A stretch of DNA of 64,000 bases from Fibrobacterales bacterium (GCA_051532055.1 JAOPTX010000003.1:89064-153063), one strand, 5' to 3'; shown: positions 35,988 to 56,100, counted from the stretch's first letter. Made by a program: numbers and translations. The notes: generated from the letters alone by a model not told the origin.

Positions 35988-37934
35988 TTATCCTATAGGC
36001 AGTCGTATTACAAATTTAGTGCCGGTTCCGGGAGTAGATTCTACGATCATTTCACCATCATGATTTTCGGTAATGATGAAAAAAGAGACACTTAACCCGA
36101 GGCCTGTACCTGTGCCTACCGGCTTCGTCGTAAAAAATGGTTCAAATATACGCTTTTGAGTAACCATATCTATACCGGGTCCGTTGTCTTCAATTTCAAT
36201 ACAGACCATGGACTTTTCCTGATCCTTTTTTGTGCGGAGTATAAAGGTCGGCGGTGCACTATCTTTATTCGTTTTTTTACATTCTTCATAGTATTCACTC
36301 ATGGCTTGTGCGCCATTCCGTAAAATATTCAATAGGACTTGATGTATTTTTGCAACTTCGCAGGGGACTAAAGGGAGGTCTTCTTCGTATTCCCTAATAA
36401 AGCGTATTGTTTTAAAGTCATATGATTTTTTTAGATCATAATCAGATTCTGCAAGTTCAATTGCAGTATCAAGCATATGAGGTACGTCTTCAGAGGACCG
36501 AATATTGTCATTTTTCCGTGAAAAATTGAGCATGTTCGTGATAATGGTTGTCGCACGGTTTCCTGCCTCTGTTATGGTGTCAATCATGCGTACTACTTCA
36601 CGTTTTTCCAGATATTCATTCATTTGTGAAAGAGAGAGGCCAATGTCCTCTGCCATTTTTTTATTTGCTGCTAATTCAAAGTTTGTTAAACGGTTCTTAA
36701 GGTTATTGGTGTTTTGAATAATCCCCGCCAAAGGGTTATTTATCTCGTGGGCCATTCCAGCCGCAAGGCCGCCGAGTGAGAGCATCTTTTCTGATTGGAT
36801 CATCATTTCTTCGAGTTTTACTCGATGAGTGGCATCATCAATTCGAATGACTGCTCCCTGTATTCCATTTGCTATGAGTGGAAATATGGTAAGGTCTTCA
36901 TAATGATGTTGACCATTAACAATACTGAAGCGCTTCGGATCAAATTGTTCTTTTCTTGTTGCAATTGCCTCAAGTATGCGGGGCATTTCAGATACTAATG
37001 GTGGGTATATTGTTTTGAGGGGAAAGCCTACGGCATTATTTGATGCAACTCCTGAAGCCATAATTGCACCATCATTCCATTGAGTAATAGTACCTTCAGT
37101 ATCGACACCTATGAGGATAGAAGGCATTGAATTGATGATATTTGTGAGATAGTTCCTTGTTTCATTGAGGTCATCAATTTGCTTCTTAATTGTTGTATGC
37201 ATATTAATAAAGCTTTCTGCAAGGTACCCGACCTCGTCACTTCTGTTAATACTGAGTGTAACGCTGGTACTTCCCTGGGCAAAGGATTGAGCCGCGTCAC
37301 TTAATTGAGTAACGGGGTTTGTGACAAAATGTTTCAGGAGTATGCTTATGAGACCAAAGGATAGGAGTAAGAAAATGAAAAATGAGATACCCGTATAGAG
37401 GACTATATTGAAGATGGTATCATCGATTGATTTCTTGGAAATGCCTATGTCAATGGCTGCGACAGGACGCTTATTGTTATTTAACACGGGTATTAACACA
37501 TGGTACGATGAAGTGGTATTGAGTGTTTGAATCGAATCACTTTTGAAGAGGTCACTCAAAAGAGTATTGGTGCGAATGTCATTCCATGCTGATGCGTCGG
37601 TATAGGTAATGATGGTGCCATCTATTCCAATAACACCGACATGGGTTATGTCTTGTTCGGTATTTGACTTCATTACTTTGTGGCAATCAATGTTCAGACC
37701 CAGGGTTTGTTGCATTTTTGCTGTATAGCCACTTAAATCAACAACGCGCTTCTGTAAATTTTTGGTAATAGTCTGGGAACGCCATTCAATAATTTTTTTA
37801 TTATCGTGCTGTAATTGACCAATGTAGAGCCATGCCGCAATAGAGAGAAGTACTATTTGAACGATAGCAACCGAGAGGGTTACCTTGGTTCCCAATCGCA
37901 ATGAACGAATACTCTTCGTGTTGGATTTATTCAT
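35988..37934 (-). CDS. Sensor histidine kinase (extracytoplasmic sensor, HAMP, PAS, HisKA, HATPase)
   Basis: 648 aa. Motifs H-box GMAHEINNPL, DNGPGI and FEPFFTTKPVGTGTGLGLS. 8-nt overlap with the upstream solute-binding protein gene. Confidence 0.9.
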   Translation of the reverse strand: MNKSNTKSIRSLRLGTKVTLSVAIVQIVLLSIAAWLYIGQLQHDNKKIIEWRSQTITKNLQKRVVDLSGYTAKMQQTLGLNIDCHKVMKSNTEQDITHVGVIGIDGTIITYTDASAWNDIRTNTLLSDLFKSDSIQTLNTTSSYHVLIPVLNNNKRPVAAIDIGISKKSIDDTIFNIVLYTGISFFIFLLLSFGLISILLKHFVTNPVTQLSDAAQSFAQGSTSVTLSINRSDEVGYLAESFINMHTTIKKQIDDLNETRNYLTNIINSMPSILIGVDTEGTITQWNDGAIMASGVASNNAVGFPLKTIYPPLVSEMPRILEAIATRKEQFDPKRFSIVNGQHHYEDLTIFPLIANGIQGAVIRIDDATHRVKLEEMMIQSEKMLSLGGLAAGMAHEINNPLAGIIQNTNNLKNRLTNFELAANKKMAEDIGLSLSQMNEYLEKREVVRMIDTITEAGNRATTIITNMLNFSRKNDNIRSSEDVPHMLDTAIELAESDYDLKKSYDFKTIRFIREYEEDLPLVPCEVAKIHQVLLNILRNGAQAMSEYYEECKKTNKDSAPPTFILRTKKDQEKSMVCIEIEDNGPGIDMVTQKRIFEPFFTTKPVGTGTGLGLSVSFFIITENHDGEMIVESTPGTGTKFVIRLPIG

Positions 37935-39333
37935 TGGTTAGCCCTTTGGGGTAATGGGGCTCTAATATCTCTGTGTTTGCTTTTTGAGCAGCTGCCCGCA
38001 TCACCTCTGAAATTGGGGCTCCATGAAGTAACGCAGAGTGAAACGCGGTATAAAAAACACGACTGACTGCTGGATACTCAGGAATATTAGGCCGACACCG
38101 ACCGGTTTGCATACCTTTTTGAATGGCTTTTAAATAGGGGAACCTTTTAATAGCATTTTTTGAAAAATGTGAAAGTCGAAAAGGGCGTCCGCCTCTTTTA
38201 ATATATTCTTGACCAATTTGAATGCTTGTTAAAAATTGTATCACTAAATACGCTTCTTGTGCATTGTTACTGTACCGATTTATTGCAAGACTATGTGCGC
38301 CGAGTCCTGGTCGTGGTGGACCAATGGAACCATCCACTTGTTGCTTTCCAGGTAAGTTTGCATAGCCTATTTTGCCTATTACTTTTGAAGCGGTAGAATC
38401 TTCCATGGGGGCGCCAATTCCTTCTGCGGGCATTATTCCCATTGCGACCTTCCCACTTTGAAATGCACCAATATAGCGCGCATGGTCGAATTCTAGTGTA
38501 TTGGGGGGAGTGAGGCCTTCTGTATAGAGTGATGCATAGAATTCAAGTGCAGCGAGTCCTTCGGGGGTATCCCATGCAACGCGATACCGGGGGAGCCCTG
38601 GGATATCAACATCACTTCCATTGATAAGTCCTGCCCCCCAAGACCAGAGAAACGGAGCAGCATCAGCAGTGATGTATTCACCCACGTGGGCAAAAAGAGC
38701 AGTTCCATACAGTGTTGGTGGAGTATTTATTTTTCGGGCATTATCTCTGAATTCCGTAAATGTTTTGGGAGGCTTTAGACCGGCAGCTTTTAAAATATCA
38801 GATCGGTAGGTAAAGAGTGAGCCATAACTTCCGAGGGGGATCGCATATTGTTTATTGTCCCACTCGCCCCCTGATTTTCTTAACACGGGTACAATGTCAT
38901 CTAAATCAAGAGAGGGGAGTGCAGGGTTTTGCATGAATGGATTGAGTGGTTGCACCCAGCCTTGAGTAAAATAATACCCCAGTGATGGCTGATCGATGGA
39001 TACAATGTCATAGTACCCTTTTTTAGAGGACAGTTCAAGTTCATGTGCTTGAAGCATTGGTTCGAATTCAAGTAAAATTGCATTAACAGCAATACCGGTA
39101 CGTTTTTCAAAATCAGATTCTTTAAGGAGCTGGAGTGCCACTTCGAAACTATGGTCTTTTAATGCGCAGATCGTGACGGTTACCGTTTCACTCTTTAGAG
39201 GTGCGTTCTGTGTGCTCTCTTTTTTTATGAGAGGAGGAGTGTCACAAGTATTTGATACATTACAAATCATAATACCAGTGATTATTGTGAGCGCTGCAAT
39301 ACCCGTTATTCTGGCGATTTTTTTCATCTTCAA
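37927..39333 (-). CDS. Extracellular solute-binding protein (ABC family 1-like), probable co-sensor of the downstream kinase
   Basis: 468 aa with an N-terminal signal anchor. The general family-1 SBP pattern is present. No permease or ATPase genes are adjacent, and it is translationally coupled to the kinase. Confidence 0.75.
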   Translation of the reverse strand: MKMKKIARITGIAALTIITGIMICNVSNTCDTPPLIKKESTQNAPLKSETVTVTICALKDHSFEVALQLLKESDFEKRTGIAVNAILLEFEPMLQAHELELSSKKGYYDIVSIDQPSLGYYFTQGWVQPLNPFMQNPALPSLDLDDIVPVLRKSGGEWDNKQYAIPLGSYGSLFTYRSDILKAAGLKPPKTFTEFRDNARKINTPPTLYGTALFAHVGEYITADAAPFLWSWGAGLINGSDVDIPGLPRYRVAWDTPEGLAALEFYASLYTEGLTPPNTLEFDHARYIGAFQSGKVAMGIMPAEGIGAPMEDSTASKVIGKIGYANLPGKQQVDGSIGPPRPGLGAHSLAINRYSNNAQEAYLVIQFLTSIQIGQEYIKRGGRPFRLSHFSKNAIKRFPYLKAIQKGMQTGRCRPNIPEYPAVSRVFYTAFHSALLHGAPISEVMRAAAQKANTEILEPHYPKGLTNE

Positions 39334-39441
39334 TCTCTTGTAATTAAAGAATATGGTGAATTTCTATTATACAATTATTATGTAAATATTGCGAGAATCA
39401 GTCAATTTCCTAGAGTTTTTTTAGTTTCGGACAGTGATATC

Positions 39442-39479
39442 ATGCATTTTCTGCACACACAGGTCTACAGAAAATGCAT
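39442..39479. repeat. Perfect 12-bp inverted repeat
   Basis: ATGCATTTTCTG (39442-39453) / CAGAAAATGCAT (39468-39479) with a 14-nt spacer. No flanking T-run. Confidence 0.8.
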
Positions 39480-39746
39480 ACCTAGAATCCAGGCCATTGA
39501 GGGAGGTTCTTCTTTGAATGTTGTTATGGACTTAATATCAGGGCGCTTTTGAAAATAAGCAACAAGTGCCTCGTTACTAAAAGGTAATGAATGATATAAG
39601 CGGTGTTCTGGTTCTTTAAATACGGATATTTTTTTTGGTCTTTTTTTAGTTTTGCCGGTTTCCACATTAAATAGACAACACGTAATTGCGGCATAAAAGG
39701 TTGTACAATATCTGAAGAACTTGTTAATGCATAAATCGATGTGGCA

Positions 39747-39944
39747 TTAATTGTCGTCATTCACTTCTACACAGTCGACAATATATTTTTGTACTGCATC
39801 TCCATCTACACAAACATAATCCTGACAGCCGTCTTTAAAACTCTCTCCATCTGAATATGTTTTGCCATTAACTTCACATTCACCTAAGAAAAATGAGCAA
39901 GAAGTAAAAAGTGTTAGTAAAAACATGATAATTATTGTTTTCAT
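39747..39944 (-). CDS. Small Cys-rich lipoprotein, function unknown
   Basis: ATG 39944 preceded by AAGGAA. Lipobox LFTSC. The mature approximately 45-aa peptide has 5 further Cys (CEVNGKTYSDGESFKDGCQDYVCVDGDAVQKYIVDC). Confidence 0.55.
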   Translation of the reverse strand: MKTIIIMFLLTLFTSCSFFLGECEVNGKTYSDGESFKDGCQDYVCVDGDAVQKYIVDCVEVNDDN

Positions 39945-39994
39945 AATAGATTCCTTAAATAATAGATAAGTCAAAATTTAATAAAATATCCCCA

Positions 39995-40114
39995 TCTGAT
40001 CACCCAGCTCTAAAAATAATCGTTGCGTGTTTGCCCTGTTGGTGGGGCGTTGGAATGGGCACGCCTTTGCATGATGTTTATTTGAGAGAAAAGAAAATAT
40101 TTTTGTTTAATGAG
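39995..40114 (-). repeat. Family-1 dispersed repeat, copy A (5'-truncated)
   Basis: cgttgcgtgtttgccctgttggtggggcgttggaatgggcacgcctttgcatgatgtttatttgagagaaaagaaaatatttttgtttaatgag aligns with 45397-45490 and 42667-42760. Confidence 0.8.
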
Positions 40115-40160
40115 TAAAGGGATCATTATGAAAATAGAACCCTTACACACAACACATGGT

Positions 40161-41555
40161 CTATTCTAGCGTTTTCAAAAAAGTAATTTCAATAAGGTCT
40201 GACATGGTACTTCCATTAGGCTCAAAAACACACAATCGATAAGTTTTAAATGCATTTGGCCATTGAGTCATAAAAGTTAATTCTGCAACTTCAGTATTTG
40301 AATCCCAATGTGTATTGAGCTCTATATCTTTTCTGGCATCAACAGTAATCCAATTGCTAGAATCATACGGATCATCAATTGTTGCATCAACGGTATCAGC
40401 TCCTTGCACCACCCAGTTTTTTGGTAATCGTTCACGAAATTGATCAAATCTACCAGTCATAGTGTAATATTCGACTCTTTGTGGTTCATCAAAACTGTAA
40501 CTCACATTTGCAGTATGCGGGTATACGATATTATCCGAAACCCAATGAGTCCAATCTTCATAAGGAGATTTTCCATCAAAGAGCTTCCATGCTTTATATT
40601 CTGAACTATAAGTACTATTAGTCTGAACACGTATATCGTCTTTAACAGTTGGTATCATCAGATTGATTCTTTTGTTCTCCATAAAATATAGGTCGATAAT
40701 ATCCGCCTCAATTGCGCCATTTACTTCCATTATACAAATACGATATGCGTTATAGATTCCTGGATCTTTTACTGTGAACGCAATAGTATCCGCTAGATTA
40801 TCTGAATACCACTCAGATCCTATTTCAATATTTTCTCTTGAATCTATGGTTGTCCAATCAGAGTCATCCATAGGATCATCAGTAGTTGCACCTTCACTAT
40901 TAGAGCCTTGTACAATCCATTTCTTAGGAAGTCTATCCTTATATTCATCATATCTACCATGAATCCTATATTCTCGTATACTTCTTTCTTCGTGGAAGTC
41001 ATACATAATAACCGCAGGAAACACTTGCTTGCTATCAGACACCCAAAGAGTCCAAAGGGAGTCAACTGCATCAAATGCCTGCCACGCCTCATAATCACTA
41101 GTGAAAACAGAACTTGCTGTAGCATTATTTTTATAATCAATTGTTCTATCAATTGCATCTACTAGATCAGGATTAATATATGCAGGTAGTCCATTATCAA
41201 GGACATTTTGGTTCGATGATTGATCTACTTGCTGCTCTATGACACTACTAAAAGGACTACTTTCTAAGGAAGAATTATTGGACGTTTCATCTAAAGATGA
41301 AGGAGTTGCATTCGTAGCGGATGATGCTATAGAATTTGAACTCATAGAAGCATTTATACTAGACACCCCAGTATTAACCCCCGAAGAAAATTGGGTGTTG
41401 GGGGTAGAGGAATATACTATTAATGTACTACTCGAAATTGATGTTTGTTGACTACTTGAAAGCGTATCATCTTCAGTGACATTAATCTGACATGACATAG
41501 AAAGGAAGGTAAGTAAAGGCAAAAAATATTTTATGGCAATTTTCATATCAATCAT
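40161..41555 (-). CDS. Lipoprotein with a Ser-rich linker and two tandem discoidin/galactose-binding-like domains
   Basis: 464 aa with lipobox LSMSC. Internal duplication: AWQAFDAVDSLWTLWVSD...YRIHGRYDEYKDRLPKKWIVQGSN...DDSDWTTIDSRENIEI versus AWKLFDGKSPYEDWTHWVSD...YTMTGRFDQFRERLPKNWVVQGAD...DSSNWITVDARKDIEL. Confidence 0.7.
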   Translation of the reverse strand: MIDMKIAIKYFLPLLTFLSMSCQINVTEDDTLSSSQQTSISSSTLIVYSSTPNTQFSSGVNTGVSSINASMSSNSIASSATNATPSSLDETSNNSSLESSPFSSVIEQQVDQSSNQNVLDNGLPAYINPDLVDAIDRTIDYKNNATASSVFTSDYEAWQAFDAVDSLWTLWVSDSKQVFPAVIMYDFHEERSIREYRIHGRYDEYKDRLPKKWIVQGSNSEGATTDDPMDDSDWTTIDSRENIEIGSEWYSDNLADTIAFTVKDPGIYNAYRICIMEVNGAIEADIIDLYFMENKRINLMIPTVKDDIRVQTNSTYSSEYKAWKLFDGKSPYEDWTHWVSDNIVYPHTANVSYSFDEPQRVEYYTMTGRFDQFRERLPKNWVVQGADTVDATIDDPYDSSNWITVDARKDIELNTHWDSNTEVAELTFMTQWPNAFKTYRLCVFEPNGSTMSDLIEITFLKTLE

Positions 41556-41695
41556 TTTAATATGACTCCTTTGAATTATTAAACCATAAATATAGCCCCC
41601 CCTAAAGAGCTTTCCCTAAATCATGAGTGGCTGTGTAAAATACTGTTCACCACCAGTGAACACTCGTTGTTGAGGTTTGGAACAAAACAAATTGC

Positions 41696-42050
41696 TTATG
41701 TTTGTGAATTATTATTGATAACCATTAATTTATAACCAAAATAAATGGTTAAATCTTTACCACTCAAGTTTTTAATCCAATGTCTTGTTTTCATTGGAAT
41801 CAAAAGCTCTTCTTCGCCATTATGCGTAAACTCTTTTTCCCAAAACTTATATAGACACTCCCCTTTATCAAGATAAACCAGTTCATCACATTCAATATGT
41901 AACGCCTATTCTATGATGGCATCTGTTTTGAAAGTGCCTTTACGGAAAGAGAAACCCCTTTCTATCCAATCATTTTTTAAAAGTGGATGCCCATTCGCCA
42001 GGATCGGAATTTTCAGTAAAGAGGAGCAAGTACATCTGAGTGGTACTTCC
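41696..42050 (-). pseudogene. Cupin-fold gene remnant with an in-frame stop
   Basis: Minus-strand translation gives ...GFSFRKGTFKTDAIIE*ALHIECDELVYLDKGECLYKFWEKEFTHNGEEELLIPMKTRHWIKNLSGKDLTIYFGYKLMVINNNSQT*. In-frame TAG at 41906-41908. No start codon upstream. Confidence 0.5.
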
Positions 42051-42099
42051 TATGCCAATATTCTCGTATCATGGTTCTATTTTCACTCAAGAATGCCTT

Positions 42100-42360
42100 C
42101 ATTTCAACTCATTAATAGACCTAAAGGGCTTTTCTTTAGGAGTAACAAAAAAGTCACCATTTATACCCATTTATCAAAAACATAACCTAGAGTATAATGA
42201 AGTTGAGACCCCAATGCAGTTATTCAATAAAACATTACTTAATAGAGAAGATTTTTTTGAAGCAACATTTCTCACGGGGTATTTACTTGGAGGTAAAAAG
42301 GAAAAAAGTATACAAGATGACTTACGAGCAGTCGTTTGGATTTTAATTATCAAAATATGA
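42100..42360 (+). pseudogene. Possible fragment of a family-3 solute-binding protein gene
   Basis: ...GVTKKSPFIPIYQKHNLEYNEVETPMQLFNKTLLNREDFFEATFLTGYLLGG resembles the middle of amino-acid-type SBPs. It lacks an N-terminus and signal peptide and has the opposite orientation to its neighbours. Confidence 0.3.
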
Positions 42361-42427
42361 ATATCGAAAATTTTGATGCTTCAGATTTTTTTAAATACCA
42401 ACGAGATCATACCGGAAAAATTATACC

Positions 42428-42649
42428 CTAATACAAACGGTCGCACGCTTCATTAAAGCATACAACCCCCATCTTCTCCGTAAAGCTCTCTGATTTACCT
42501 GATTCAATGTTCAACACCACATGCCAGATGTACACACCCTGATCTATAACGGTTCCCGATTTCATTTCAGTCAGTAATACACCGCCCTCATTATATACCG
42601 GTATATCCTCTGAGGCATCGTTTGGCGAATCTACGCAGCGTTTTTGCAC
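42428..42649 (-). CDS. Hypothetical small protein (start lies inside repeat copy B)
   Basis: 73-codon ORF with a GTG start inside the family-1 repeat. No recognisable motif. Confidence 0.25.
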   Translation of the reverse strand: MQKRCVDSPNDASEDIPVYNEGGVLLTEMKSGTVIDQGVYIWHVVLNIESGKSESFTEKMGVVCFNEACDRLY

Positions 42650-42793
42650 TTCAGTGCATAGAAAAAACGTTGTGTGCTTCGGCTGTGTGTGGATCGTTGG
42701 AATGGGTATGCCTTGGCATGATATCTATTTGGGATAAAAGAAAGTATTTTTGTTTCGTGAGCGCAGTCGGGGAGGGCGGAACGATTTTTTTAG
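42632..42793 (-). repeat. Family-1 dispersed repeat, copy B (full length, about 160 bp)
   Basis: Near-identical over about 160 bp to 45361-45521. Contains the palindromes TGCACTTCAGTGCA and ATGCCTTGGCAT. Confidence 0.9.
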
Positions 42794-42848
42794 AATGTTT
42801 ACCAAGTGACATCACCACAAGAAGCGTTATCAAAAGTATTACTTTCAT
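42651..42848 (-). CDS. Small signal-peptide ORF whose C-terminal two-thirds is encoded by repeat copy B
   Basis: MKVILLITLLVVMSLG... followed by ...LTKQKYFLLSQIDIMPRHTHSNDPHTAEAHNVFSMH*. The same reading frame is open, but start-less, in copies A and C. Confidence 0.3.
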   Translation of the reverse strand: MKVILLITLLVVMSLGKHSKKIVPPSPTALTKQKYFLLSQIDIMPRHTHSNDPHTAEAHNVFSMH

Positions 42849-42887
42849 AGTTCCTTGGACTACAAGTACCTGAAGTTATTTTATTTT

Positions 42888-42923
42888 TTCCACCTGTGAT
42901 GCTGTTCCAATGCTTTGTTATAC
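42888..42923 (-). repeat. Half copy of the 57-bp attC-like palindrome, abutting the ParE stop codon
   Basis: gtgatgctgttccaatgctttgttatac (42896-42923) versus gtgatgccgctccaatgttttgttatac (46145-46172): 3 mismatches in 28. Both end 0-2 nt from a stop codon. Confidence 0.8.
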
Positions 42924-42925
42924 AT

Positions 42926-43249
42926 TTATCTTCCTAGTGATCTATTTAGAAGTGCATCATCAATATTTCTTCTACTATCAATAACTGCTAAAATTACAAT
43001 TTTCTTATTTTTTACTTTGTACATTATTCGCCACGGTGCAACAACTAATTCTCGATAAGATTTTATGTTCTGTAATTGTAATTCAGGAATAACCCTCCCT
43101 ACTTTGGGGGTATCTACTAATTTCACACAGCGTTCTTGTATTTTAGAAAATTGTTTCTTTGCTGCGTCAATACTATCAGAGCTAATGTAATCAAGAATAG
43201 ACTCTAAATCATATTGGGCACTCGGAGACCAAGCTACTGAATACTTCAT
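42926..43249 (-). CDS. Type II toxin, RelE/ParE family
   Basis: 107 aa. The pattern W.P.A..DL..I..YI......A......I.......P..GR......YRE.....YRI.Y......I.I..V...R is typical of ParE. 1-nt overlap with the upstream antitoxin. Confidence 0.8.
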   Translation of the reverse strand: MKYSVAWSPSAQYDLESILDYISSDSIDAAKKQFSKIQERCVKLVDTPKVGRVIPELQLQNIKSYRELVVAPWRIMYKVKNKKIVILAVIDSRRNIDDALLNRSLGR

Positions 43250-43518
43250 TACTTATACTTTGATTTTAGTTTAGCGAAAAACTTGGTCTGAGTTTCAAAA
43301 TCTCCATTTTCATATTCTTTTTCACTTTGTGACAAAAGCTTAAGAATTTTTAAACTATCTTGCATATTTTGATAGCTTTCAGGATCTACAATAACACCTT
43401 TAGCCTCTCCATTCTGGGTGATGAAAATGGGCCTATGTGTCTCATTGATTTGATTCAACACTTCTGAGGCATGTGCTTTTATATATGAAATTGGTTTTAT
43501 ATCTTGGACTAGATTCAT
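43249..43518 (-). CDS. Type II antitoxin, Phd/YefM family
   Basis: 89 aa. ISYIKAHASEVLNQINETHRPIFITQNGEAKGVIVDPESYQNM is a classic Phd/YefM N-terminal fold signature. Confidence 0.8.
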   Translation of the reverse strand: MNLVQDIKPISYIKAHASEVLNQINETHRPIFITQNGEAKGVIVDPESYQNMQDSLKILKLLSQSEKEYENGDFETQTKFFAKLKSKYK

Positions 43519-43630
43519 AATATCCTCCAGTCTAAATATAGTACTTAATATGGTTCGATGTAATCTATTCTTTATATTATCATAATTAAATAATTTCAGT
43601 TATATATTTGTCTCAAATAGCCACATTCTG

Positions 43631-43680
43631 GATGATGGGGCGTACACAAAAACATTTTCTTCCCTGCATGCCTATGCAGC
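43631..43680 (+). repeat. Family-1 repeat, partial inverted copy E with a palindromic insert
   Basis: gatgatggggcgtacacaaaaacattttcttccctgcatgcctatgcagc aligns with 46928-46980. Orientation is opposite to copies A-C. Confidence 0.7.
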
Positions 43681-43865
43681 TCATGATACTATAGTATGGA
43701 GTATTTTGGACCATAAAGGCATTGATGGCTTAACCGTTCAAGCTATTGATACTGGAGATGGGTTTGAAAAATTAATTGATAAACTAAAAGTCCAATACAT
43801 GCCTAAACGTTCCGAAAACGGCAGCAGTGAATTCCATATTTATGGGAATTTATTGATGCCTTTTC

Positions 43866-43901
43866 GTGTTGGGCCCAGTAGGTGATTATCGATACTTTAT
43901 C
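43866..43901. repeat. Family-2 repeat, copy F1
   Basis: gtgttgggcccagtaggtgattatcgatactttatc versus 44897-44933 gttgttgagcccagtaggtgattgtcgatactgtatc. Lies 47 nt after the RDD gene stop. Confidence 0.85.
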
Positions 43902-43947
43902 TTTTTAAATTAACAGAAGATGATAATTTGAAATAAATAGACATCTA

Positions 43948-44706
43948 TTATTTATTAATATCTTGTAACAATAATTGTTTTTTATTTACAACCAAAGTTC
44001 CAGCCATAAAATCATGTATTGCTCTACGATCTTTATTTAATTGCATAACAATTATTTCACTACACATCCAATATGTTTGAAATACTCCAATAACTATCAT
44101 AATCATTGTCCTACTTTGTGCTATTACAATATTTCTCTCTGTAAATGTTAATTCTGAAAATTTATACAAATCAATATCTGTAAATATCAAGTATGTTGAA
44201 AAAGCAGTTATAAATGCGAGACTCAAATCAATAGAAGTTCGAATCATAGCATTTGAAAACTTAATTGAATTGTTGTCAAGTTTAACAACTTGTAAACCCA
44301 TTATCATTTTGCCAATTGATGCACCAAATTTTGTTAATAAATAAATATTTAGACTCAAACACAATAACCAAAAAAACGACTGAAATACAGGGTATAGTCT
44401 TACAACATTATTTAGTATTAAGGGTTGTAGCAGAAAAAACGGAATCATAAAAACAAAACCATCAATTAAAACTGCACAAACTCTTCTTCCTGTACTGGCC
44501 AAATATGTTTTTTTACCTTTAGTATTTTCACCATTCCACAATCTGTATGATAAAATAAAACTCACAATTCCTAGCGGGATAGTAAAATACTTATCGACAC
44601 CTTCAAAAGCTTGATTTGGATTGGCTTGACTTCCCATATCAGTAAATGGCATCATCACATATATAAATCCAAATATAAAAGCAAATACTGCTAACGTTTT
44701 TTTCAT
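43948..44706 (-). CDS. RDD-family integral membrane protein
   Basis: GRRVCAVLIDGFVFMIPFF is the RDD signature, with multiple TM segments. I prefer ATG 44706 (GGAGA RBS) over the track start 44745. Confidence 0.7.
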   Translation of the reverse strand: MKKTLAVFAFIFGFIYVMMPFTDMGSQANPNQAFEGVDKYFTIPLGIVSFILSYRLWNGENTKGKKTYLASTGRRVCAVLIDGFVFMIPFFLLQPLILNNVVRLYPVFQSFFWLLCLSLNIYLLTKFGASIGKMIMGLQVVKLDNNSIKFSNAMIRTSIDLSLAFITAFSTYLIFTDIDLYKFSELTFTERNIVIAQSRTMIMIVIGVFQTYWMCSEIIVMQLNKDRRAIHDFMAGTLVVNKKQLLLQDINK

Positions 44707-44848
44707 AAATTCTCCAATAGTTATGCCTATAAACAAGTTACACAAAAAGCCTATATCAAATTAAGATAGTAAATTAGCATTACATATACAGGGCTTCGAT
44801 ACTCTTTTAAAATTCATCAATTTGTTCAAACAGTTCTCTCTCCTATCG

Positions 44849-44914
44849 CCTATTGGGCCCAACGTTCTCTATTTATAGAAAACATTGCCTGCTATCGTTG
44901 TTGAGCCCAGTAGG
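44849..44914. repeat. attC-like imperfect inverted repeat (includes family-2 copy F2)
   Basis: CCTATTGGGCCCAAC (44849-44863) / GTTGAGCCCAGTAGG (44900-44914): 13 of 15 complementary, 36-nt spacer. The arms contain GCCCAAC / GTTGAGC on the plus strand and GCTCAAC / GTTGGGC on the minus strand (RYYYAAC / GTTRRRY). Confidence 0.6.
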
Positions 44915-44989
44915 TGATTGTCGATACTGTATCACTTAAAATATTATTACAAAATTTATGTATAACTAGGTTTATGTCAGCCTAAGCAA

Positions 44990-45307
44990 TTATTTAGCTG
45001 ACACCCACCCTCCACTTCTTACCCATCCTGGATTATTAAACAATGGTTCTTCTCCAGAAACAAGTAATAAGATAGCTTTTGTAGCGTCATAGATTAATTC
45101 AGCATCCTTATCATTAACATGAATTCCTGCGTGGATAAGATTATTTCGTTTAATTCTTAATTCATTTATGAGGTTATATATTTTTTCTGGTAGTAATTCT
45201 AATGAATAGAGAAATTCAATCCTTACAGAAGCTGTATAAACATTAAAATCAGAATATTTTTTCTTTCTTTTTTGATCTTCCGATGCAACTCCCTCAATAA
45301 CTTTCAA
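44990..45307 (-). CDS. HEPN-like domain protein (possible RNase toxin), N-terminus unclear
   Basis: Rx4H motif in LRIKRNNLIHAG. The only start is TTG. The frame stays open upstream into repeat copy C without an ATG. Confidence 0.45.
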   Translation of the reverse strand: MKVIEGVASEDQKRKKKYSDFNVYTASVRIEFLYSLELLPEKIYNLINELRIKRNNLIHAGIHVNDKDAELIYDATKAILLLVSGEEPLFNNPGWVRSGGWVSAK

Positions 45308-45360
45308 TTTCCATAATTTTTCAAGAACAACTTCAATAAATGACCAACGCTTTGGCGGAG

Positions 45361-45521
45361 TACGCAGTGTTTTTGCACTTCAGTGCGTAGAAAAAACATT
45401 GTGTGCTACGGCTGTTGGTGGATCGTAGGAATGGGCATGCCTTGCCATAATGTCTATTTGGGAGAAAAGAAAATATTTTTGTTTACTGAGCGTAAGCAGG
45501 GATGTTGGAGCGATTTATTTA
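45361..45521 (-). repeat. Family-1 dispersed repeat, copy C (full length)
   Basis: tacgcagtgtttttgcacttcagtgcgtagaaaaaacattgtgtgctacggctgttggtggatcgtaggaatgggcatgccttgccataatgtctatttgggagaaaagaaaatatttttgtttactgag... starts at the stop codon of the 45519-46106 ORF. Confidence 0.9.
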
Positions 45522-46106
45522 GTCTATATTTCTTGTATTATATTGGGCAAATACTTTGTTAGCTATTGGTTGAATTGTCCACAATCCAATTGGGAAAAAC
45601 CAAAATAGAAACATACTACCTATAGATTCACCCCTAGAAGCAACTCTTCCCAACTCTATGGATTTCAAAACTCTCCCTGGAAAATAAAGCATATACAGCA
45701 TCCCAAACATAGCAGTTAAGTGCATTGGTATAATCAAAAATATCATCCATGATACATTTGGAATAATTTCAAATAATGTAGAGGCCATGAACATATAACA
45801 AAAAGAAAATGAAGATAAAAATATAAACTTCTTTACTTTCATTTGTTCCAGTCCAGAAACGAAAGATCTCAATCTTACACCGATCGATATAAACCATGTT
45901 ATACCAATTAAAAATGCAAAGGCACTAAACAACCAAAGGTATTTAAAAGATTCGAAAACTTGTTCTGGATTTTCAAAATTTTGTTTTGAATTTGATGATA
46001 TAAATTCTTGGACCATCAAAACTTGTACCGCCAATGGAACCAAAAACATCCCAATAAATAACTGCCAATGCTTAGCTTTAAGCAAAATATCAAATATTTT
46101 ATTCAT
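45519..46106 (-). CDS. Integral membrane protein (about 5 TM), function unknown
   Basis: 195-aa ORF with hydrophobic segments. RBS AAGGAG 8 nt upstream of ATG 46106. Confidence 0.6.
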   Translation of the reverse strand: MNKIFDILLKAKHWQLFIGMFLVPLAVQVLMVQEFISSNSKQNFENPEQVFESFKYLWLFSAFAFLIGITWFISIGVRLRSFVSGLEQMKVKKFIFLSSFSFCYMFMASTLFEIIPNVSWMIFLIIPMHLTAMFGMLYMLYFPGRVLKSIELGRVASRGESIGSMFLFWFFPIGLWTIQPIANKVFAQYNTRNID

Positions 46107-46115
46107 TCTTTCTCC

Positions 46116-46172
46116 TTATAACGCCTTAATTGAGCGGATCACTAGTGATGCCGCTCCAATGTTTTGTTATAC
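46116..46172. repeat. 57-bp attC-like structured palindrome filling the whole intergenic gap
   Basis: Minus strand reads GTATAAC-aaaacattg-GAGCGG-c-ATCACTAGTGAT-CCGCTC-aattaaggc-GTTATAA. This gives an outer 6-7-bp pair, a 9x9 unpaired internal loop, and an inner 6+6-bp stem with one extrahelical base. It begins immediately after the stop at 46173 and ends at the RBS of the next ORF. Confidence 0.65.
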
Positions 46173-46874
46173 TCAATCCCAATATTCGTATTCATAACTA
46201 AATTTTCTCTGAAAACCTCTTTCAGATCCAATATATTTTTGAAACACCACATCACCTACATCATTATAGTCAAATATATTTTTTGTTTTAGATATAGTTT
46301 GATTTCCTTCATAGAAGGAAGTTGATTCATGAACGACCGAAACAAGATAATTATCTTTATATGTATTAAATATTTTATGTCTCACACCTCCATCTTCTCC
46401 AGACTGAGTATACATTACAACATTTATTGGGGCATCGTATGTATAGGAATAATCATAATCCCCATCATATTTATACACCAATGCTCCTTTTAAATCATAA
46501 CGGTATCCATTAAAAATACTTGTATCATTTTTAGTAAAAAACACTTTCACGCTATAATCATCATAATACTTATACCATTGTATATTTTTTTCTGATACAA
46601 CACTGACTAAGCGCCTGTTTTTATATTTAAATTCTTTAGTTCCACTTCTACTTTTTTCTTTCTGCAGGAAACCCAAAGAATCAAACTCCAAAATGACGAC
46701 ATAAGCTATTGAGTCTGATTTTGTACTATGCACATTGATAATTTTACGTTTTAAATTAGTAGTATCACGAACAATAAATCCATATACAGATACATCGAAA
46801 TAATTATTAGTAATTCCGTTTACATTTGACAAAAGTCCTAAAATACAAACCAGGAATACTCCAACTACATACAT
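46173..46874 (-). CDS. Secreted or membrane-anchored protein, function unknown
   Basis: 233-aa ORF with N-terminal hydrophobic anchor MYVVGVFLVCILGLLSNVNG. Tyr/Asp-rich beta-type sequence with no recognised motif. Confidence 0.6.
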   Translation of the reverse strand: MYVVGVFLVCILGLLSNVNGITNNYFDVSVYGFIVRDTTNLKRKIINVHSTKSDSIAYVVILEFDSLGFLQKEKSRSGTKEFKYKNRRLVSVVSEKNIQWYKYYDDYSVKVFFTKNDTSIFNGYRYDLKGALVYKYDGDYDYSYTYDAPINVVMYTQSGEDGGVRHKIFNTYKDNYLVSVVHESTSFYEGNQTISKTKNIFDYNDVGDVVFQKYIGSERGFQRKFSYEYEYWD

Positions 46875-46927
46875 CTAATTAAACTCCTTATACAATAGAC
46901 ACAATATAATAAAATAGGCCCACCATA

Positions 46928-47042
46928 GACGGTGGGGCGTACCAAACAAAAATATTTTCTTCCCTGCATAACTATGCAGTCTCCCAAATAGATACCCTGT
47001 CCATTCCTATGTCCATCAACTATAGAAGTACGCAATAAAAAT
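46928..47042 (+). repeat. Family-1 repeat, inverted copy D with a 19-nt palindromic insert
   Basis: aaacaaaaatattttctt + CCCTGCATAACTATGCAGT + ctcccaaatagata...ccattcctatgtccatcaac aligns with the reverse complement of copy C. Confidence 0.75.
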
Positions 47043-47204
47043 ATTCCACAAATCTACTCCTATCATACAGTCAAACTCACACGACATTTGTAAAAACCCG
47101 CAAAATGAATTGATATAGCGGGTGATAAACAACATATGCGCATTATGCGGACAGCGCGATAACCACCCATCTAGCAGAAAATACTTAGATTAAATGGGGT
47201 AGAC

Positions 47205-48251
47205 TTACCCCAATGTAATGATCCGTTCAATCTCCTCACGACACGCAACAGCAACCTCTCGCTGCCTCTCCCGTGCAACCGTATTATCCTCAAACACATC
47301 ACCCACAATAACAATATTCTCATCATTAGTCCTATTAGCAGGCTCCGTATAGTTAAATGATCCAAAGATAGTGACCGCATCATCAATCACCATGAGCTTA
47401 TGATGAAGCTTCCCGAGGCCTCCCTTATTACCAATGAGCGAGATGCTAATGCCCGCCTCTACAAGGTTATGAGTGGCGGCCCATTTTTGATTCCCCTGAA
47501 GCCTATCCAGTACACCGGTAATCTGCACACCTCGTTGCTGTGCTGCAATCAGCGCATCATCAATACCAGAACTGTGAGCAAAGGTAAAGACCGCAAAGTC
47601 AATCCGCACTCGTGCCTTAAGAATTTGCTTCATAATCTCTAGTTCAGGAGTATGGTCGGGGGAGAAGAGTACCCTGATTCTGATTCGGTCTACGGTACTG
47701 TTAATTGGGGCTACGCTTTTCATGATGCTCTCACGACCAAATCTCCCTGATTTAATCTCATCGAACTCAATACGAAATTGATTGGCGATAGTCTTATTAT
47801 GAATAACGATCACATGGTTCAGGTTTTTAGTCACCCCAGTGTCGGTAAAGTTCGTTGAGCCCGTGAGAACCGAATCACTACATGTCATAAACTTTTGATG
47901 AAAGATTGCGCTATTAAAATCAACCTTCACGTCGATATCTGCCCGATATAAGGCACTGAAGAGTTCTCTGTTTATTTCGTGGCTTCCCGATGGTTCAAAA
48001 GGGGATACTTGTTTCCGAGAGGCCAACAGATAACTCTGCTCAAGAACGATATCAATAACGACTCCTCGACTGCGTGCCCGTATGAGCGCCTCGGTAATCT
48101 CTCTATTGTCTATCTCCTGAAGAGCCACACAGAGGTTCTCTCTCGGTTTAGCGTCATCAATAAAGCCAATGATTGGTTCTAACAGTGAATCCGGCCCGCT
48201 TTGCTCCTTTGGGCCTAAATAGAGCTTGAAACTGCGTGCACTATAGCTCAT
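47205..48251 (-). CDS. Phospholipase D superfamily protein with two HKD motifs (no signal peptide)
   Basis: 348 aa. HKD motifs FHQKFMTCSDSVLTGSTNFT and LHHKLMVIDDAVTIFGSFNYT. The start overlaps the upstream stop (TAATG). Confidence 0.85.
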   Translation of the reverse strand: MSYSARSFKLYLGPKEQSGPDSLLEPIIGFIDDAKPRENLCVALQEIDNREITEALIRARSRGVVIDIVLEQSYLLASRKQVSPFEPSGSHEINRELFSALYRADIDVKVDFNSAIFHQKFMTCSDSVLTGSTNFTDTGVTKNLNHVIVIHNKTIANQFRIEFDEIKSGRFGRESIMKSVAPINSTVDRIRIRVLFSPDHTPELEIMKQILKARVRIDFAVFTFAHSSGIDDALIAAQQRGVQITGVLDRLQGNQKWAATHNLVEAGISISLIGNKGGLGKLHHKLMVIDDAVTIFGSFNYTEPANRTNDENIVIVGDVFEDNTVARERQREVAVACREEIERIITLG

Positions 48252-49225: not shown

Positions 49226-49380
49226 AAATATCTCTCTTCAAATCGCGGTTTTTTTTATTTAAACAGTGCGAAGCACTTTACACAACACATCCGCATTGAT
49301 CCCCACAACCAATATCACCATTTCCACTCCAACCATCAACAAAGGAAAAATTCCATTTTTTCCGAGCCAATAAGGGAATA

Positions 49381-49563
49381 GCTATGTGTTCCAGCTCTCT
49401 GCGAAGAGAAGCGCGCCTGGTCACAATGCTAGGCATTGTTGCTCGGCCAAGCAACCGGGGGCTCCCAAAGGGTACGCGCTTCGGCGTATCCATTGGTGGG
49501 GGTCTGGGGGAGAAGCCCCCGGGAACTCAAATAAAAAACCAATAAAATTAAGGGAACACATAG
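49381..49563 (+). ncRNA. Candidate structured RNA (unknown class) in a GC-rich island
   Basis: 11-bp closing helix CTATGTGTTCC (49381-49391) / GGAACACATAG (49553-49563). Internal hairpins: TCTCT-GCGA-AGAGA (49396-49409), ACAATGC-tag-GCATTGT (49423-49439), GTTGCT-cggcca-AGCAAC (49438-49455), GGGTACGC-gcttcg-GCGTATCC (49470-49491), GGGGG-agaag-CCCCC (49506-49520). The GNRA and UUCG loops read correctly only on the plus strand. Confidence 0.35.
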
Positions 49564-53143: not shown

Positions 53144-56100
53144 ATGAGTATTAATTCAATAGTATTCACTTTCATAATAATCTTTGGAATTACAAATTCT
53201 TTTTGCGGCGATTGGGATGTTTTAAATCCTATTGATGTAGGTCAACAAGCGGCATATGATGATTTGGTTGCAAAAATTATTTTAGCAAATGGGACAGTTG
53301 GCCCGCATACAATTAATTTACCCGAAAAAAGTGAATTCGTATTTCCAATAACGACATTGAGAAATAAAAATGGATACACTGCTTTGCCGTTTATAGATCA
53401 AGAGATAATTGTAAACGCTAACAATTCGAAGTTTTCAATTCCAAATAGTTATACAATAGAAACACTTCGCTTTTTTTTCGTAGAGTATGGAGCTAAATTA
53501 GAAATTAATAATCTAACACTTGATGGGGGTTCTGCAATAAATGGTGGAGCTATTTATAACGCAGGTTCTCTTATTCTTAGAAATACTACCATAAATAATA
53601 CCAATAAGAAGTTCCTTAATGAATTACGACAAAAGCGATATGGTACCTCTACAACCGAAATAGGAAATGATGGTGCCATATTCAATAACTCAAGATATTT
53701 TCCAGGAGAAGATAATAATATAATGGCTTCTCTTAAAATATATAATTGTCATTTTGTAGGTAATTTGGCGCAATGGGGAGGGGCAATCACAAATCTTTAT
53801 GGGAAAGTAGACATATATAATTCAGAATTTTTAAGAAATACTGGATTAGGACATGGTGGTGCAATTAGTAATGGTAGGAATTATACTGCATATGGTTATG
53901 AAATACATAATAGGGTTGTGAATATATATAATACACGGTTTATTGAAAATGTAGCAGGTGATCAGGATGATATAGTGGTTAATCTCGATGGTGGTGGAAC
54001 AAATGTAGTTCATAGGATGGCACCAGGTGGCGCCATAGATAACCAGACAGTGATGAATATTCAAAATTCGTTTTTTTATAAAAATGTGGCACTCGAAGGT
54101 GGAGCAATTAGAAATGCTGGCTTGCTGAATATAGATAATTCCACTTTTGCACAAAATCGAGTGTATCGTTCAGCAGTATTTTCAGACATGTCTGATGATG
54201 TTGATTTTAATAGCTTGATTACTGCTCGGGGACTACCAAGTGACCCAATTGTTGCCGTATCACAACCACTTCTTCCATATGTCGCCCCTAATTTTCCATT
54301 TGGATCAGATATTCCCGGTACAAAACTGTTAGACCCTGTAAATGGTGGGGTATTGTCTAATAAATATATTTTTGCCCCGGTTCGTGCCCTCATTACAAAT
54401 TCAACTTTAGCATATAATGTCTCTGAAGTATGGGGAGGTGGAGTGTTTGCTGAAGCTACTTTAGGAAGTGTAAGTATACATAATGTCATATTATCTAATA
54501 ATGCCACATATCACCCGGACAATACTACCAGTAGTCCGAATTGTAAAGGGTACCTACATATGTGGCTTGGGAGTGATGATAGAAATGTTATACCTGATCT
54601 CACTGGATGTGCGGTAATTAATGGTTCATCAAATATTATTGGCTCAGACCCAAATTTACTAGAATTAGATTTTTCAACAGGGGTCTATCCTATTGATATG
54701 ACTTCTTCAGCAATTAATATGGGGAGATTTACTCAAATTAGTGAGTACGATCAACGAGGATTAAATCGTCATTATGGTTTTTTAGATATAGGGGCTTATG
54801 AATATCATCCGGATGCCGTTACTATGTGCGAAGAGCTTGAAGATGGATATCAAGTGTCGGTTGACAAACTAGCTGATGATCATTTGAGGTACAGTGTGCT
54901 ATCAAATAAATCGCTTTCTCAGGCCCGGGCAACTGTCTATATAGATAGGAACGGAACTATAATTCCGTTATTTGGATACCCTGATTCCCCGAATCCTGTA
55001 AGTCTCTGTGATACGAAGGTCAATGGCGTTCAACAGTATTGTTTTGAACATACGGGCTATGATTACCAAAATTTAGACGAAATAATCGTTCAATTCGAAG
55101 TTGATGATGGAGTAAACACTGCTTATCCAGATATATACACATACATTTATGAAGGTGACCAAGCAAACGAGTTTATAGAGGTTAAAGATGATGGTAACGT
55201 TCACTATTCCCTTACATTAAATCAACAAGTATCTACTATAAATTTTTGGTCAAAAATAAATGGTACAGAATTTGATTTAGGAAATGTTAAGAGTTCAGAA
55301 CAAGATAATCTTGATGGTACATTTACTTATTTGTTTGATCATAGTAAATATCATTATTCTAAAGGAGATATTTTAGAAGCGAGAGTAGAATATACTCTAC
55401 CTCCTTCGGATAATTATTTTTTACCAGGGCCAGACAATACTGTATATTCATCAGAAATTCAGTATGAATGGGGAATGGTTCCAGAAATATCGCATGAGAT
55501 TCTTTCACTTGGCGAGGTCAAGATTACTGTAACATTTTCTGAATCCAAGGATGCAATCAAGGCTCTAATAAAACGTGTGAGTAATGTTTTTCCTGAAGTG
55601 TCTATCGATCTCTCTACAGAGGTACATGATCCTACGAATAATACCTGGTCTTATAGTGCATTATTTCCTGCATATTATTTCAATACTGGTGACATTCTTG
55701 AACCAAGAATATGGTCATCTGTTTCAATAAGAGGTGAAGAGTTTGTACCAGGTGCTGATGCAAGTGTATGGGGGGATGAATTTGAATATGACTATGTATT
55801 CAATTGTACAGCCGTTTTACCTGATGGCAACTATTATATGAAAAATACTAATAGTAATAAATGTGTAGAAGTAGAAAATAATGGTACTGAAAATGGTGCA
55901 AATATTAGACAGTGGGGATGTAATCAAACCAGTGGTCAGAGATGGGAAGCTACTCATTTAGGTGATTGTATATATGAACTCCGAGGAGAAAATTCTGGTA
56001 AACTACTAGAAAAGTCAAATTATGGAAATGATGTAAACGTACATCAATGGTGGAGTGATCCTTCAAATTCTTATCAACAATGGCGGCTAACAGAAAGTGG

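Follow-up and report, generated by a model that had tools for sequence, protein, structure and literature searches.

By the default of IntegronFinder 2, a cluster of attC sites lacking an integrase (CALIN) has two or more attC sites (PMC9024848), and elements with a single site can be real as well (PMC9024848). Integrons are found mainly in Proteobacteria, with few in relatives from the FCB group, namely Chlorobi, Ignavibacteriae, and Salinibacter (PMC9024848); no mention of integrons in Fibrobacter or Fibrobacterales was found in the searched literature. Here, a low-GC island of small genes is described from a 64,000-nt stretch of a Fibrobacterales chromosome (GCA_051532055.1, JAOPTX010000003.1:89064-153063; hereafter the window, with positions counted from its first base), in which one intergenic junction, X1, carries an attC site of canonical architecture. 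The island resembles CALIN as described with IntegronFinder (Cury 2016; Neron 2022) in its co-oriented small open reading frames (ORFs), its one canonical attC site, the lack of a nearby integrase, a toxin-antitoxin unit, genes without database relatives, and low GC, but differs in having one passing site, hairpins of two further families that are not attC, and a repeat present in two orientations. An initial annotation had proposed a CALIN-like array at 39334-47204 in an FCB-group genome; the host is indeed represented by a Fibrobacterales metagenome-assembled genome (MAG), and the proposal holds for one attC site and the missing integrase, but not for a second attC site, which was not recovered by the better of our two covariance models (R2, below). 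A CALIN calls for two or more co-oriented attC sites clustered within 4 kb, and either model found one; by the default of IntegronFinder 2, the island would go unreported as a CALIN.

X1 lies between the first two genes of the island, as follows:

46173-46874, minus strand: 233-aa ORF without a Pfam match, its N-terminus resembling a signal peptide (MGL1900694.1, OCC49_01070).
46116-46172, minus strand: X1, attC site of 57 nt, recognized by covariance models, strict geometry, and fold.
45519-46106, minus strand: 195-aa ORF, a multi-pass membrane protein with no Pfam match, whose ribosome-binding site (RBS) overlaps the R' box of X1.

The first base of X1 directly follows the TGA of the 233-aa ORF (0-nt gap), and its R' box overlaps the AAGGAG that forms the RBS of the 195-aa ORF, for which five helices were counted by eye from the sequence without a topology predictor. 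This junction (46172-46116) bears out what had been singled out beforehand as the clearest case, a palindrome that ends at the RBS of the next ORF. Its layout is GTATAAC (R'')-AAAAC-ATT[G]GAGCGG[C]ATCA-ctag-TGAT CCGCTC AAT-TAAGGC-GTTATAA (R'), in which R'' and R' (GTATAAC/GTTATAA) form 6/7 pairs, the spacers are 5 nt and 6 nt long, the L region reads 3 bp-[G]-6 bp-[C]-4 bp, and the predicted crossover, G|TT, falls at 46122/46121. The aadA1 attC has the same layout (7-5-3-[1]-6-[1] ... 6-3-6-7). In comparison with class-1 attC sites more broadly (aadA1, catB3, qacF), X1 shares the spacing of boxes, spacers, and bulges, the polarity relative to the ORF, and the bases TAACAA and AGGCGTTA, but it has an AT-rich stem, R boxes of TATAAC/GTTATA, bottom-strand bulges that are G and C where the class-1 sites have T and G, and a Fibrobacterales chromosome as its host.

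Covariance models were built for this analysis rather than taken from IntegronFinder (attC_4.cm). Model R1 was built from 11 class-1 integron attC sites from plasmid records with the canonical structure, long sites being trimmed to 60 nt since full-length MAFFT alignment disrupted the L box; model R2 was rebuilt from 19 aligned R1 matches, since R1 missed true attC sites longer than 90 nt. R1 gave a single match in the window, X1 on the minus strand (38.5 bits, E 1.9e-7), and R2 likewise returned X1 only (38.1 bits, E 3.2e-8). These scores are close to those of true attC sites outside the training sets, specifically aac(6')-Ib (38-42 bits) and cmlA1 (38.9 bits) with R1 and oxa1 (40.4 bits) with R2. 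R2 recovered all known attC sites located in the control loci (25 matches), including sites of 90-127 nt and the untrained arr-3, IMP-1, and dfrA1 sites, and the negative control, 382 kb of unrelated viral DNA, yielded 0 matches. A strict geometry count gave X1 19/20 pairs, a level reached in 3/300 dinucleotide shuffles of the whole window, and the best score elsewhere in the window was 16/20, which is the chance level; a looser geometry scanner, which scored at least 17 in 12/40 shuffles and was thus non-discriminating, was dropped in favor of the strict count and the covariance models. Covariance modeling was among the checks named in the initial annotation for its CALIN-like array, and it found one site with our models, leaving the proposal unrefuted on this point and, equally, without the array of attC sites that it described.

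All folds were computed as single-stranded DNA, with z-scores relative to shuffled sequence. The bottom strand of X1 (window plus strand) forms the complete R-box, spacer, and L-box fold, the 3' arm bearing two bulges of one base each (z -3.9), whereas the minimum-energy fold of the top strand leaves the R box unpaired, matching the bottom-strand folding bias of attC sites (PMC6393395). From the covariance-model scores, the geometry identical to that of aadA1, the strand bias of the fold, and the position directly after a stop codon, X1 is judged on its sequence to be a genuine attC site that is predicted to be recombined by IntI, and the 233-aa ORF together with X1 to be a genuine integron gene cassette. 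By a mechanism taken from established integron biology, the strand complementary to the ORFs (window plus) would fold into a paired R box, an unpaired spacer, and an L box with two bulged bases; an IntI-type tyrosine recombinase would bind this fold and exchange strands at the AAC opposite G|TT (46122/46121), and strand exchange at X1 would insert or excise the unit.

The island in which X1 lies (window 39.4-47.1 kb) has a GC content of 0.30-0.36, compared with 0.40-0.45 in its flanks, and spans the gap from a PLD-family gene (47205-48251) to a solute-binding-protein (SBP) gene (37927-39333). It contains 10-12 short ORFs, all on the minus strand without exception, in line with the roughly ten minus-strand ORFs originally reported for 39334-47204. 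In order, the secreted-looking 233-aa protein and the 195-aa membrane protein are followed by a C-terminal DUF4145 fragment, an RDD protein, and a Phd and ParE pair, then by two small ORFs and a stretch of gene fragments (41.6-42.6 kb), and lastly by a duplicated and a Cys-rich lipoprotein:

44990-45307, minus strand: 105-aa ORF with a weak DUF4145 (HEPN-like) match in its C-terminal two-thirds only.
43948-44745, minus strand: RDD-family membrane protein (Pfam), 252 aa from the ATG at 44706 (MGL1900691.1).
43249-43518, minus strand: Phd/YefM antitoxin (Pfam E 4e-17).
42926-43249, minus strand: ParE toxin (Pfam E 1e-15).
40161-41555, minus strand: 464-aa lipoprotein, internally duplicated, matching F5/8-type-C-like sequence weakly.
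39747-39974, minus strand: 75-aa Cys-rich lipoprotein with a weak Fn1-like match.

The functions originally predicted for these ORFs were thus upheld in part: ParE, Phd, and RDD exceed the Pfam cut-offs, whereas the DUF4145/HEPN-like, F5/8-type-C ("discoidin"), and Fn1-like Cys-rich matches are weak and fall below them. The stop and start codons of phd and parE overlap (42926-43518). The 105-aa ORF begins with TTG immediately after a repeat (A, below) and aligns to positions 26-87 of the 88 in the DUF4145 profile (22.8 bits, cut-off 23.1); it is probably 5'-truncated, and could represent part of a gene instead of a complete cassette gene. In a word-indexed search of 5.8 billion proteins, the 233-aa and RDD proteins matched only their own genome, and the island DNA had no blastn match in plasmid or phage collections. 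Exact-protein look-ups likewise led back to this genome alone. No tRNA was found in the window, and Rfam searches yielded no match across the window at gathering thresholds and, with E relaxed to 10, no relevant one in the island; a sigma-70 promoter scan performed at chance level, and a terminator scan was uninformative for the junctions.

We give about an even chance to the reading that the island is what remains of an integron-type cassette array, or an atypical form of one, in which a single attC site is intact. It would then be an accessory island of small gene units in the Fibrobacterales chromosome, and we infer that the whole island may have been assembled by attC recombination; the co-oriented ORFs, the low GC, the Phd/ParE pair, and the two proteins without relatives all support a cassette origin. 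The remaining junctions carry different hairpin repeats (A, B, S4, and S5) that are not canonical attC sites but have the strand bias of X1, a further point in favor of this reading. As had been noted from the sequence at the outset, every gap in the island contains a repeat or palindrome, and three repeat families (type 1, that of X1; type 2; and A-type) fill these gaps:

42891-42923, minus strand: X3, possible X1-type attC relic, left half only (R'' GTATAAC, spacer, L'').
41730-41793, minus strand: X2, possible decayed X1-type attC (TGAAAAC-AAGAC-ATTGGA...GTTATAA), among the gene fragments.
45340-45525, minus strand: A, full A-type repeat, a core of ~100 nt plus a hairpin (45424-45342) bounded by CACCAAC...GTTGGTC.
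42612-42796, minus strand: B, second full A-type repeat, 85% identical to A over about 180 nt.
39970-40134, minus strand: C, partial A-type repeat, core only, the hairpin part diverged and without a fold (nhmmer E 2.5e-39, self-inclusive, as the profile was built from A, B, and C).
46907-47036, plus strand: E, inverted partial A-type copy with the core, an R''-like CCATCAAC, and the left hairpin arm.
43620-43690, plus strand: D, short inverted partial core in the phd leader, with ~75 nt in common with E.
44838-44925, minus strand: S4, type-2 palindrome with exact GCTCAAC...GTTGGGC termini.
43801-43874, minus strand: S5, second type-2 site, GCCCAAC...GTTTAGG around a long hairpin.

No copies of the three families were found outside the island in the 64 kb or in the comparison sequences L001-L003. 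An 18-mer of the core has five matches in the island and none elsewhere in the window, with 0.44 expected. A metagenome scan for the core repeat gave two matches, both attributable to chance, and scans of viral contigs gave 41 chance 17-mer matches without attC in one case, one match in another, and none in a third; a protein search with a profile of repeat-translated peptides returned only the query genome or no match.

The A-type element consists of the ~100-nt core followed by an 83-nt hairpin. B retains the hairpin with one compensatory change relative to A (T-A to C-G), although both of its AAC/GTT boxes are mutated, and A and B cease to be homologous no more than about 3 nt from the G|TT predicted for A. 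Among the type-2 sites, the left arms of S4 and S5 are homologous (44 nt, 86%; nhmmer E 1.8e-5), and both have GAACG before TT and diverge after GAACG|TT; this end point and that of the A/B homology also favor the cassette-array reading. The two ends of the RDD unit are inverted repeats of 15-22 bp, TTGGGCCCAATAGG...CCTACTGGGCCCAAC; joined by circularization of the unit, they would regenerate a GCCCAAC/GTTGGGC R box without mismatch. RYYYAAC...GTTRRRY-like termini had been reported for several junctions; they are exact only at 44906-44857, within S4. X3 begins 2 nt after the ParE stop and is 85% identical to X1 over 33 nt, and does not fold. The case for X3 and X2 as copies of X1 is based mostly on position, the sequence homology being weak, and both are possible decayed copies of an X1-type attC site.

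The distribution of the A-type core follows a regular pattern. The copies in direct orientation (A, B, and C) are found downstream of ORFs, and the inverted copies E and D lie in the leaders of the 233-aa gene and of phd, giving twice over (E-X1-A and D-X3-B) an arrangement in which an inverted core, a gene, a type-1 site, and a further gene are followed by a direct core with its hairpin; to our knowledge, this is unlike any integron array. E, which matches the A/B/C profile at model positions 5-128 (nhmmer E 1.2e-8), fills the 5' leader of the 233-aa ORF, and with A it forms inverted repeats of ~125 nt around two ORFs. The attC sites in an array share one orientation, and they therefore do not explain a core that occurs in both; the pattern instead suggests an additional repeat element or a past rearrangement. 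A Bacteroidetes-type promoter (TTTG...TAnnTTTG) was considered for the core and rejected, the spacing being 13 or 30 nt instead of about 19-21.

The leaders that contain E and D (46907-46990 and 43620-43690) also share, on the minus strand, an element of ~75 nt with two small hairpins, in which the hairpin CTGCATAGnnATGCAG is followed by GGAAGAAAATrTTTTTGT, by GTACGCCCCA, and by the second hairpin, with no Rfam match. The second hairpin at E is followed by a T-rich run and has a terminator-like score at 46936-46919, and the shared element could be a 5' regulatory or attenuator element. Plus-strand ORFs of 59-106 aa without Pfam matches occur at 41900-42360, in the gene-fragment stretch, and at 43706-43885, between S5 and D; they may be remnants of inverted genes.

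The A-type and type-2 hairpins folded as follows on the two strands:

A: plus strand -20.1 kcal/mol (z -4.8), minus strand -11.5 kcal/mol (z -1.4).
B: plus strand -15.5 kcal/mol (z -2.9), minus strand -11.0 kcal/mol (z -1.4).
S5: plus strand -16.2 kcal/mol (z -3.7), minus strand -11.1 kcal/mol (z -1.3).
S4: plus strand -12.8 kcal/mol (z -3.4), minus strand -12.3 kcal/mol (z -2.8).

All four fold at least as well on the window plus strand, which corresponds to the bottom strand of X1, and markedly better in the case of A, B, and S5. Across 6,392 sliding 90-nt windows, the strand difference had a standard deviation of 1.5 kcal/mol, and A was the most asymmetric position (-8.6 kcal/mol). On the ORF strand, A, B, S5, X2, and X3 have z-scores between -0.2 and -1.4, no better than shuffles, and most of the imperfect palindromes of the initial annotation are thus not significant as read on that strand; for A, B, S4, and S5, significance is confined to the opposite strand or is greater there. 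No fold was obtained on either strand for X2, X3, C, D, and E. The asymmetry arises from G-T pairs, and no T-run follows any of the hairpins, which together would fit a single-stranded DNA role of the strand opposite the ORFs better than a terminator. AAC...GTT is present at the hairpin base in A, S4, and S5 and absent in B, and the 5-nt bulge of A lies on the arm that carries the bulges in X1. These four elements are not canonical attC sites, yet they are not random.

Several results weigh against the reading of the island as a cassette array. Only one attC site in it passes the models: A, B, S4, S5, X2, and X3 had no R1 or R2 match at E up to 10 in an 8-kb search, except for the R boxes of S4 (6.7-7.3 bits). 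The R1 negatives are weak because R1 missed attC sites longer than 90 nt, but R2 repaired this and the negatives were unchanged; both models were trained on attC sites of proteobacterial mobile integrons only. A, B, S4, and S5 have no L box or two-sided spacer, the stems of the hairpins other than X1 run 8-13 bp past the R boxes (in S4 around an interior without attC geometry), and the bulge of S5 is on the opposite arm. The homology of X3 to X1 is marginal (nhmmer E 0.08), and X2 has no covariance-model or nhmmer match and no significant fold. At X1 itself, R'' pairs better with the TTATAA of the neighboring unit than with the 5' end of its own unit. The occurrence of repeats in both orientations, already recognized in the initial annotation and seen here for the A-type core with its inverted copy E, belongs with these points, as does the lack of a recombinase. 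As first reported, no tyrosine recombinase is present in the window: tblastn with IntI1 over the 64 kb gave nothing better than E 1.8, no ORF scanned in the window matched Phage_integrase, and Pfam detected no recombinase or transposase in window ORFs of at least 110 aa outside larger ORFs or in several smaller ones. Upstream of the island lies the PLD-family gene with its terminator, and there is no intI/attI/Pc arrangement of a complete integron. With no IntI within 64 kb, X1 is either served in trans or a fossil. Sedentary chromosomal arrays such as those of the Vibrio VCR are similarly chromosomal, with genes without relatives, a toxin-antitoxin cassette, and family-type repeats, but their attC sites form a single homogeneous family, all oriented alike and adjacent to intI, whereas the island has three families, mostly non-canonical, and no intI in the window.

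The best-surviving alternative is that the island is a lineage-specific variable islet of non-integron origin, with units bounded by other single-strand hairpin repeats or by repeats resembling miniature inverted-repeat transposable elements (MITEs), in which a single cassette (the 233-aa ORF and X1) landed; we consider this unlikely, though far from negligible. Here the repeats would be the A-type element, present in both orientations, and type-2 units with terminal inverted repeats of ~20 bp, comparable to mobile insertion cassettes or palindromic elements derived from IS200/IS605, the cassette having entered, for example, through integrase action at a non-att GTT site. Exactly one attC site was found, and this result, the inverted copy E, the E/A inverted repeats around two ORFs, and the inverted repeats at the ends of the RDD unit are in keeping with it. 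Cassettes are also described as inserting at places other than att sites (bioRxiv 10.1101/2022.09.11.507474). A single attC site outside an integron, a one-site CALIN in the terms of IntegronFinder, is likewise an intact attC after one ORF with no integrase or attI; X1 differs in that it is embedded in an extended series of cassette-like units and has two possible decayed homologs there. Short Logan contigs from run SRR21695763, an independent assembly of the same sample, are 100% identical to the window over 42650-45432 and 45475-46808 and stop inside the A and B repeats, which could reflect assembly ambiguity there and possibly extra copies elsewhere in the genome. MITEs, mobile insertion cassettes, IS200/IS605-derived elements, and repetitive extragenic palindromes (REPs) are also short non-coding hairpin repeats in both orientations, with inverted repeats around passenger genes and strand-specific folding. 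Unlike such elements, however, the island is accompanied by no transposase (Y1/HUH or other) and no REP-associated tyrosine transposase in the 64 kb, its repeat families are confined to it in the window and L001-L003 where MITEs and REPs are genome-wide, and no target-site duplications were seen; the AAC/GTT hairpin bases and the common strand bias would also be left as coincidence. A group II intron and an IS1111-attC element were considered as well and dropped, with no Rfam match and no ORF.

It is improbable that the island is a working CALIN in which A, S4, and S5 (and, in the past, B, X2, and X3) serve as functional non-canonical attC sites for a divergent Fibrobacterales integrase encoded elsewhere. 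The AAC...GTT bases of all three and the exact RYYYAAC/GTTRRRY of S4 are as expected for such sites, together with bottom-strand folding, the bulge of A on the X1-bulge arm, the one compensatory pair between A and B, family homology that ends at the predicted crossover, the perfect box restored by circularizing the RDD unit, and the integrons of the FCB relatives named above (PMC9024848). Nevertheless, there is no covariance-model signal past the R boxes, S4 has no 3'-side spacer, S5 has its bulge on the opposite arm, the stems pass the R boxes, three unrelated site families within 8 kb are unlike sedentary arrays, and no integrase was seen in the window. It is similarly doubtful that a cassette system specific to Fibrobacterales recombines at the A-type, S4, and S5 hairpins; such sites would be read as single-stranded DNA in the manner of attC but with another architecture, perhaps by another recombinase, and the system would coexist with, and have captured, the classical integron cassette. 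On that reading, the ~100-nt core would form a second functional module, for instance a cassette-borne leader or promoter. Chance palindromes and ordinary terminators between small genes are a very improbable account of the whole, for although on the ORF strand several palindromes do not exceed shuffled sequence and the loose geometry scan reached scores of at least 17 in 12/40 shuffles, it is refuted for X1 by E-values of 1e-7 to 1e-8 and the strict geometry and for the repeat families by their significance and island specificity, and the hairpins lack T-runs and fold on the antisense strand.

The flanks of the cassette-like island were compared with a related MAG, tPB_Fibr2, whose SBP is 87% identical in amino acid sequence to the flanking SBP. 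Homology with this MAG is limited to the SBP and histidine-kinase genes and ends at window 39392, in agreement with the right-hand boundary originally assigned; upstream of its SBP, the related MAG has unrelated genes. A single hairpin lies ~50 nt inside the right edge of the island, where synteny with the related MAG resumes at 39392, and may mark the island end:

39442-39479, no strand assigned: near-perfect 14-bp hairpin, ATGCATTTTCTG...CAGAAAATGCAT, z -4.6, no T-run.

In the related MAG, a diverged second SBP copy (66% nucleotide identity; L001 5984-7174) lies on the opposite strand upstream of the ortholog, and the low-GC island occupies the window position at which this second copy is found.

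Elsewhere in the window, a protein with a Fib_succ_major domain is encoded at 4.6-6.2 kb, and two strong tandem hairpins follow an F5/8-type-C ORF at 7126-7229 (RNA z -6.6, plus strand), the second being a clear and ordinary intrinsic terminator with a T7 run. A bacterial GRAS-family domain protein (25557-26678, E 1.7e-16) shares its operon with genes for two AMP-binding enzymes, an aminotransferase, and a hydrolase. Folding in the window is strongest in a GC-rich (~60%) non-coding segment at 49380-49525, between a 324-aa ORF and the next ORF; it reaches -21.9 kcal/mol per 90 nt as DNA and, as RNA, z about -2.2 on either strand, and Rfam gave no match there. A separate low-GC stretch (0.33-0.37) encodes two very large secreted-looking proteins, one at 53144-56677 with four ricin-type lectin repeats and a CDtoxinA-like domain (E 2.7e-8) and one at 56689-59316 with a weak InlB B-repeat match.

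Should the island be merely a decayed array, the finding would be an ordinary one. A textbook attC site in a Fibrobacterales chromosome indicates that integron cassettes reach this lineage, and X1 provides a concrete place to look for the integrase of the lineage. The strand-biased hairpins, which fail attC models yet occupy attC positions, offer a test of detection beyond proteobacterial sites.

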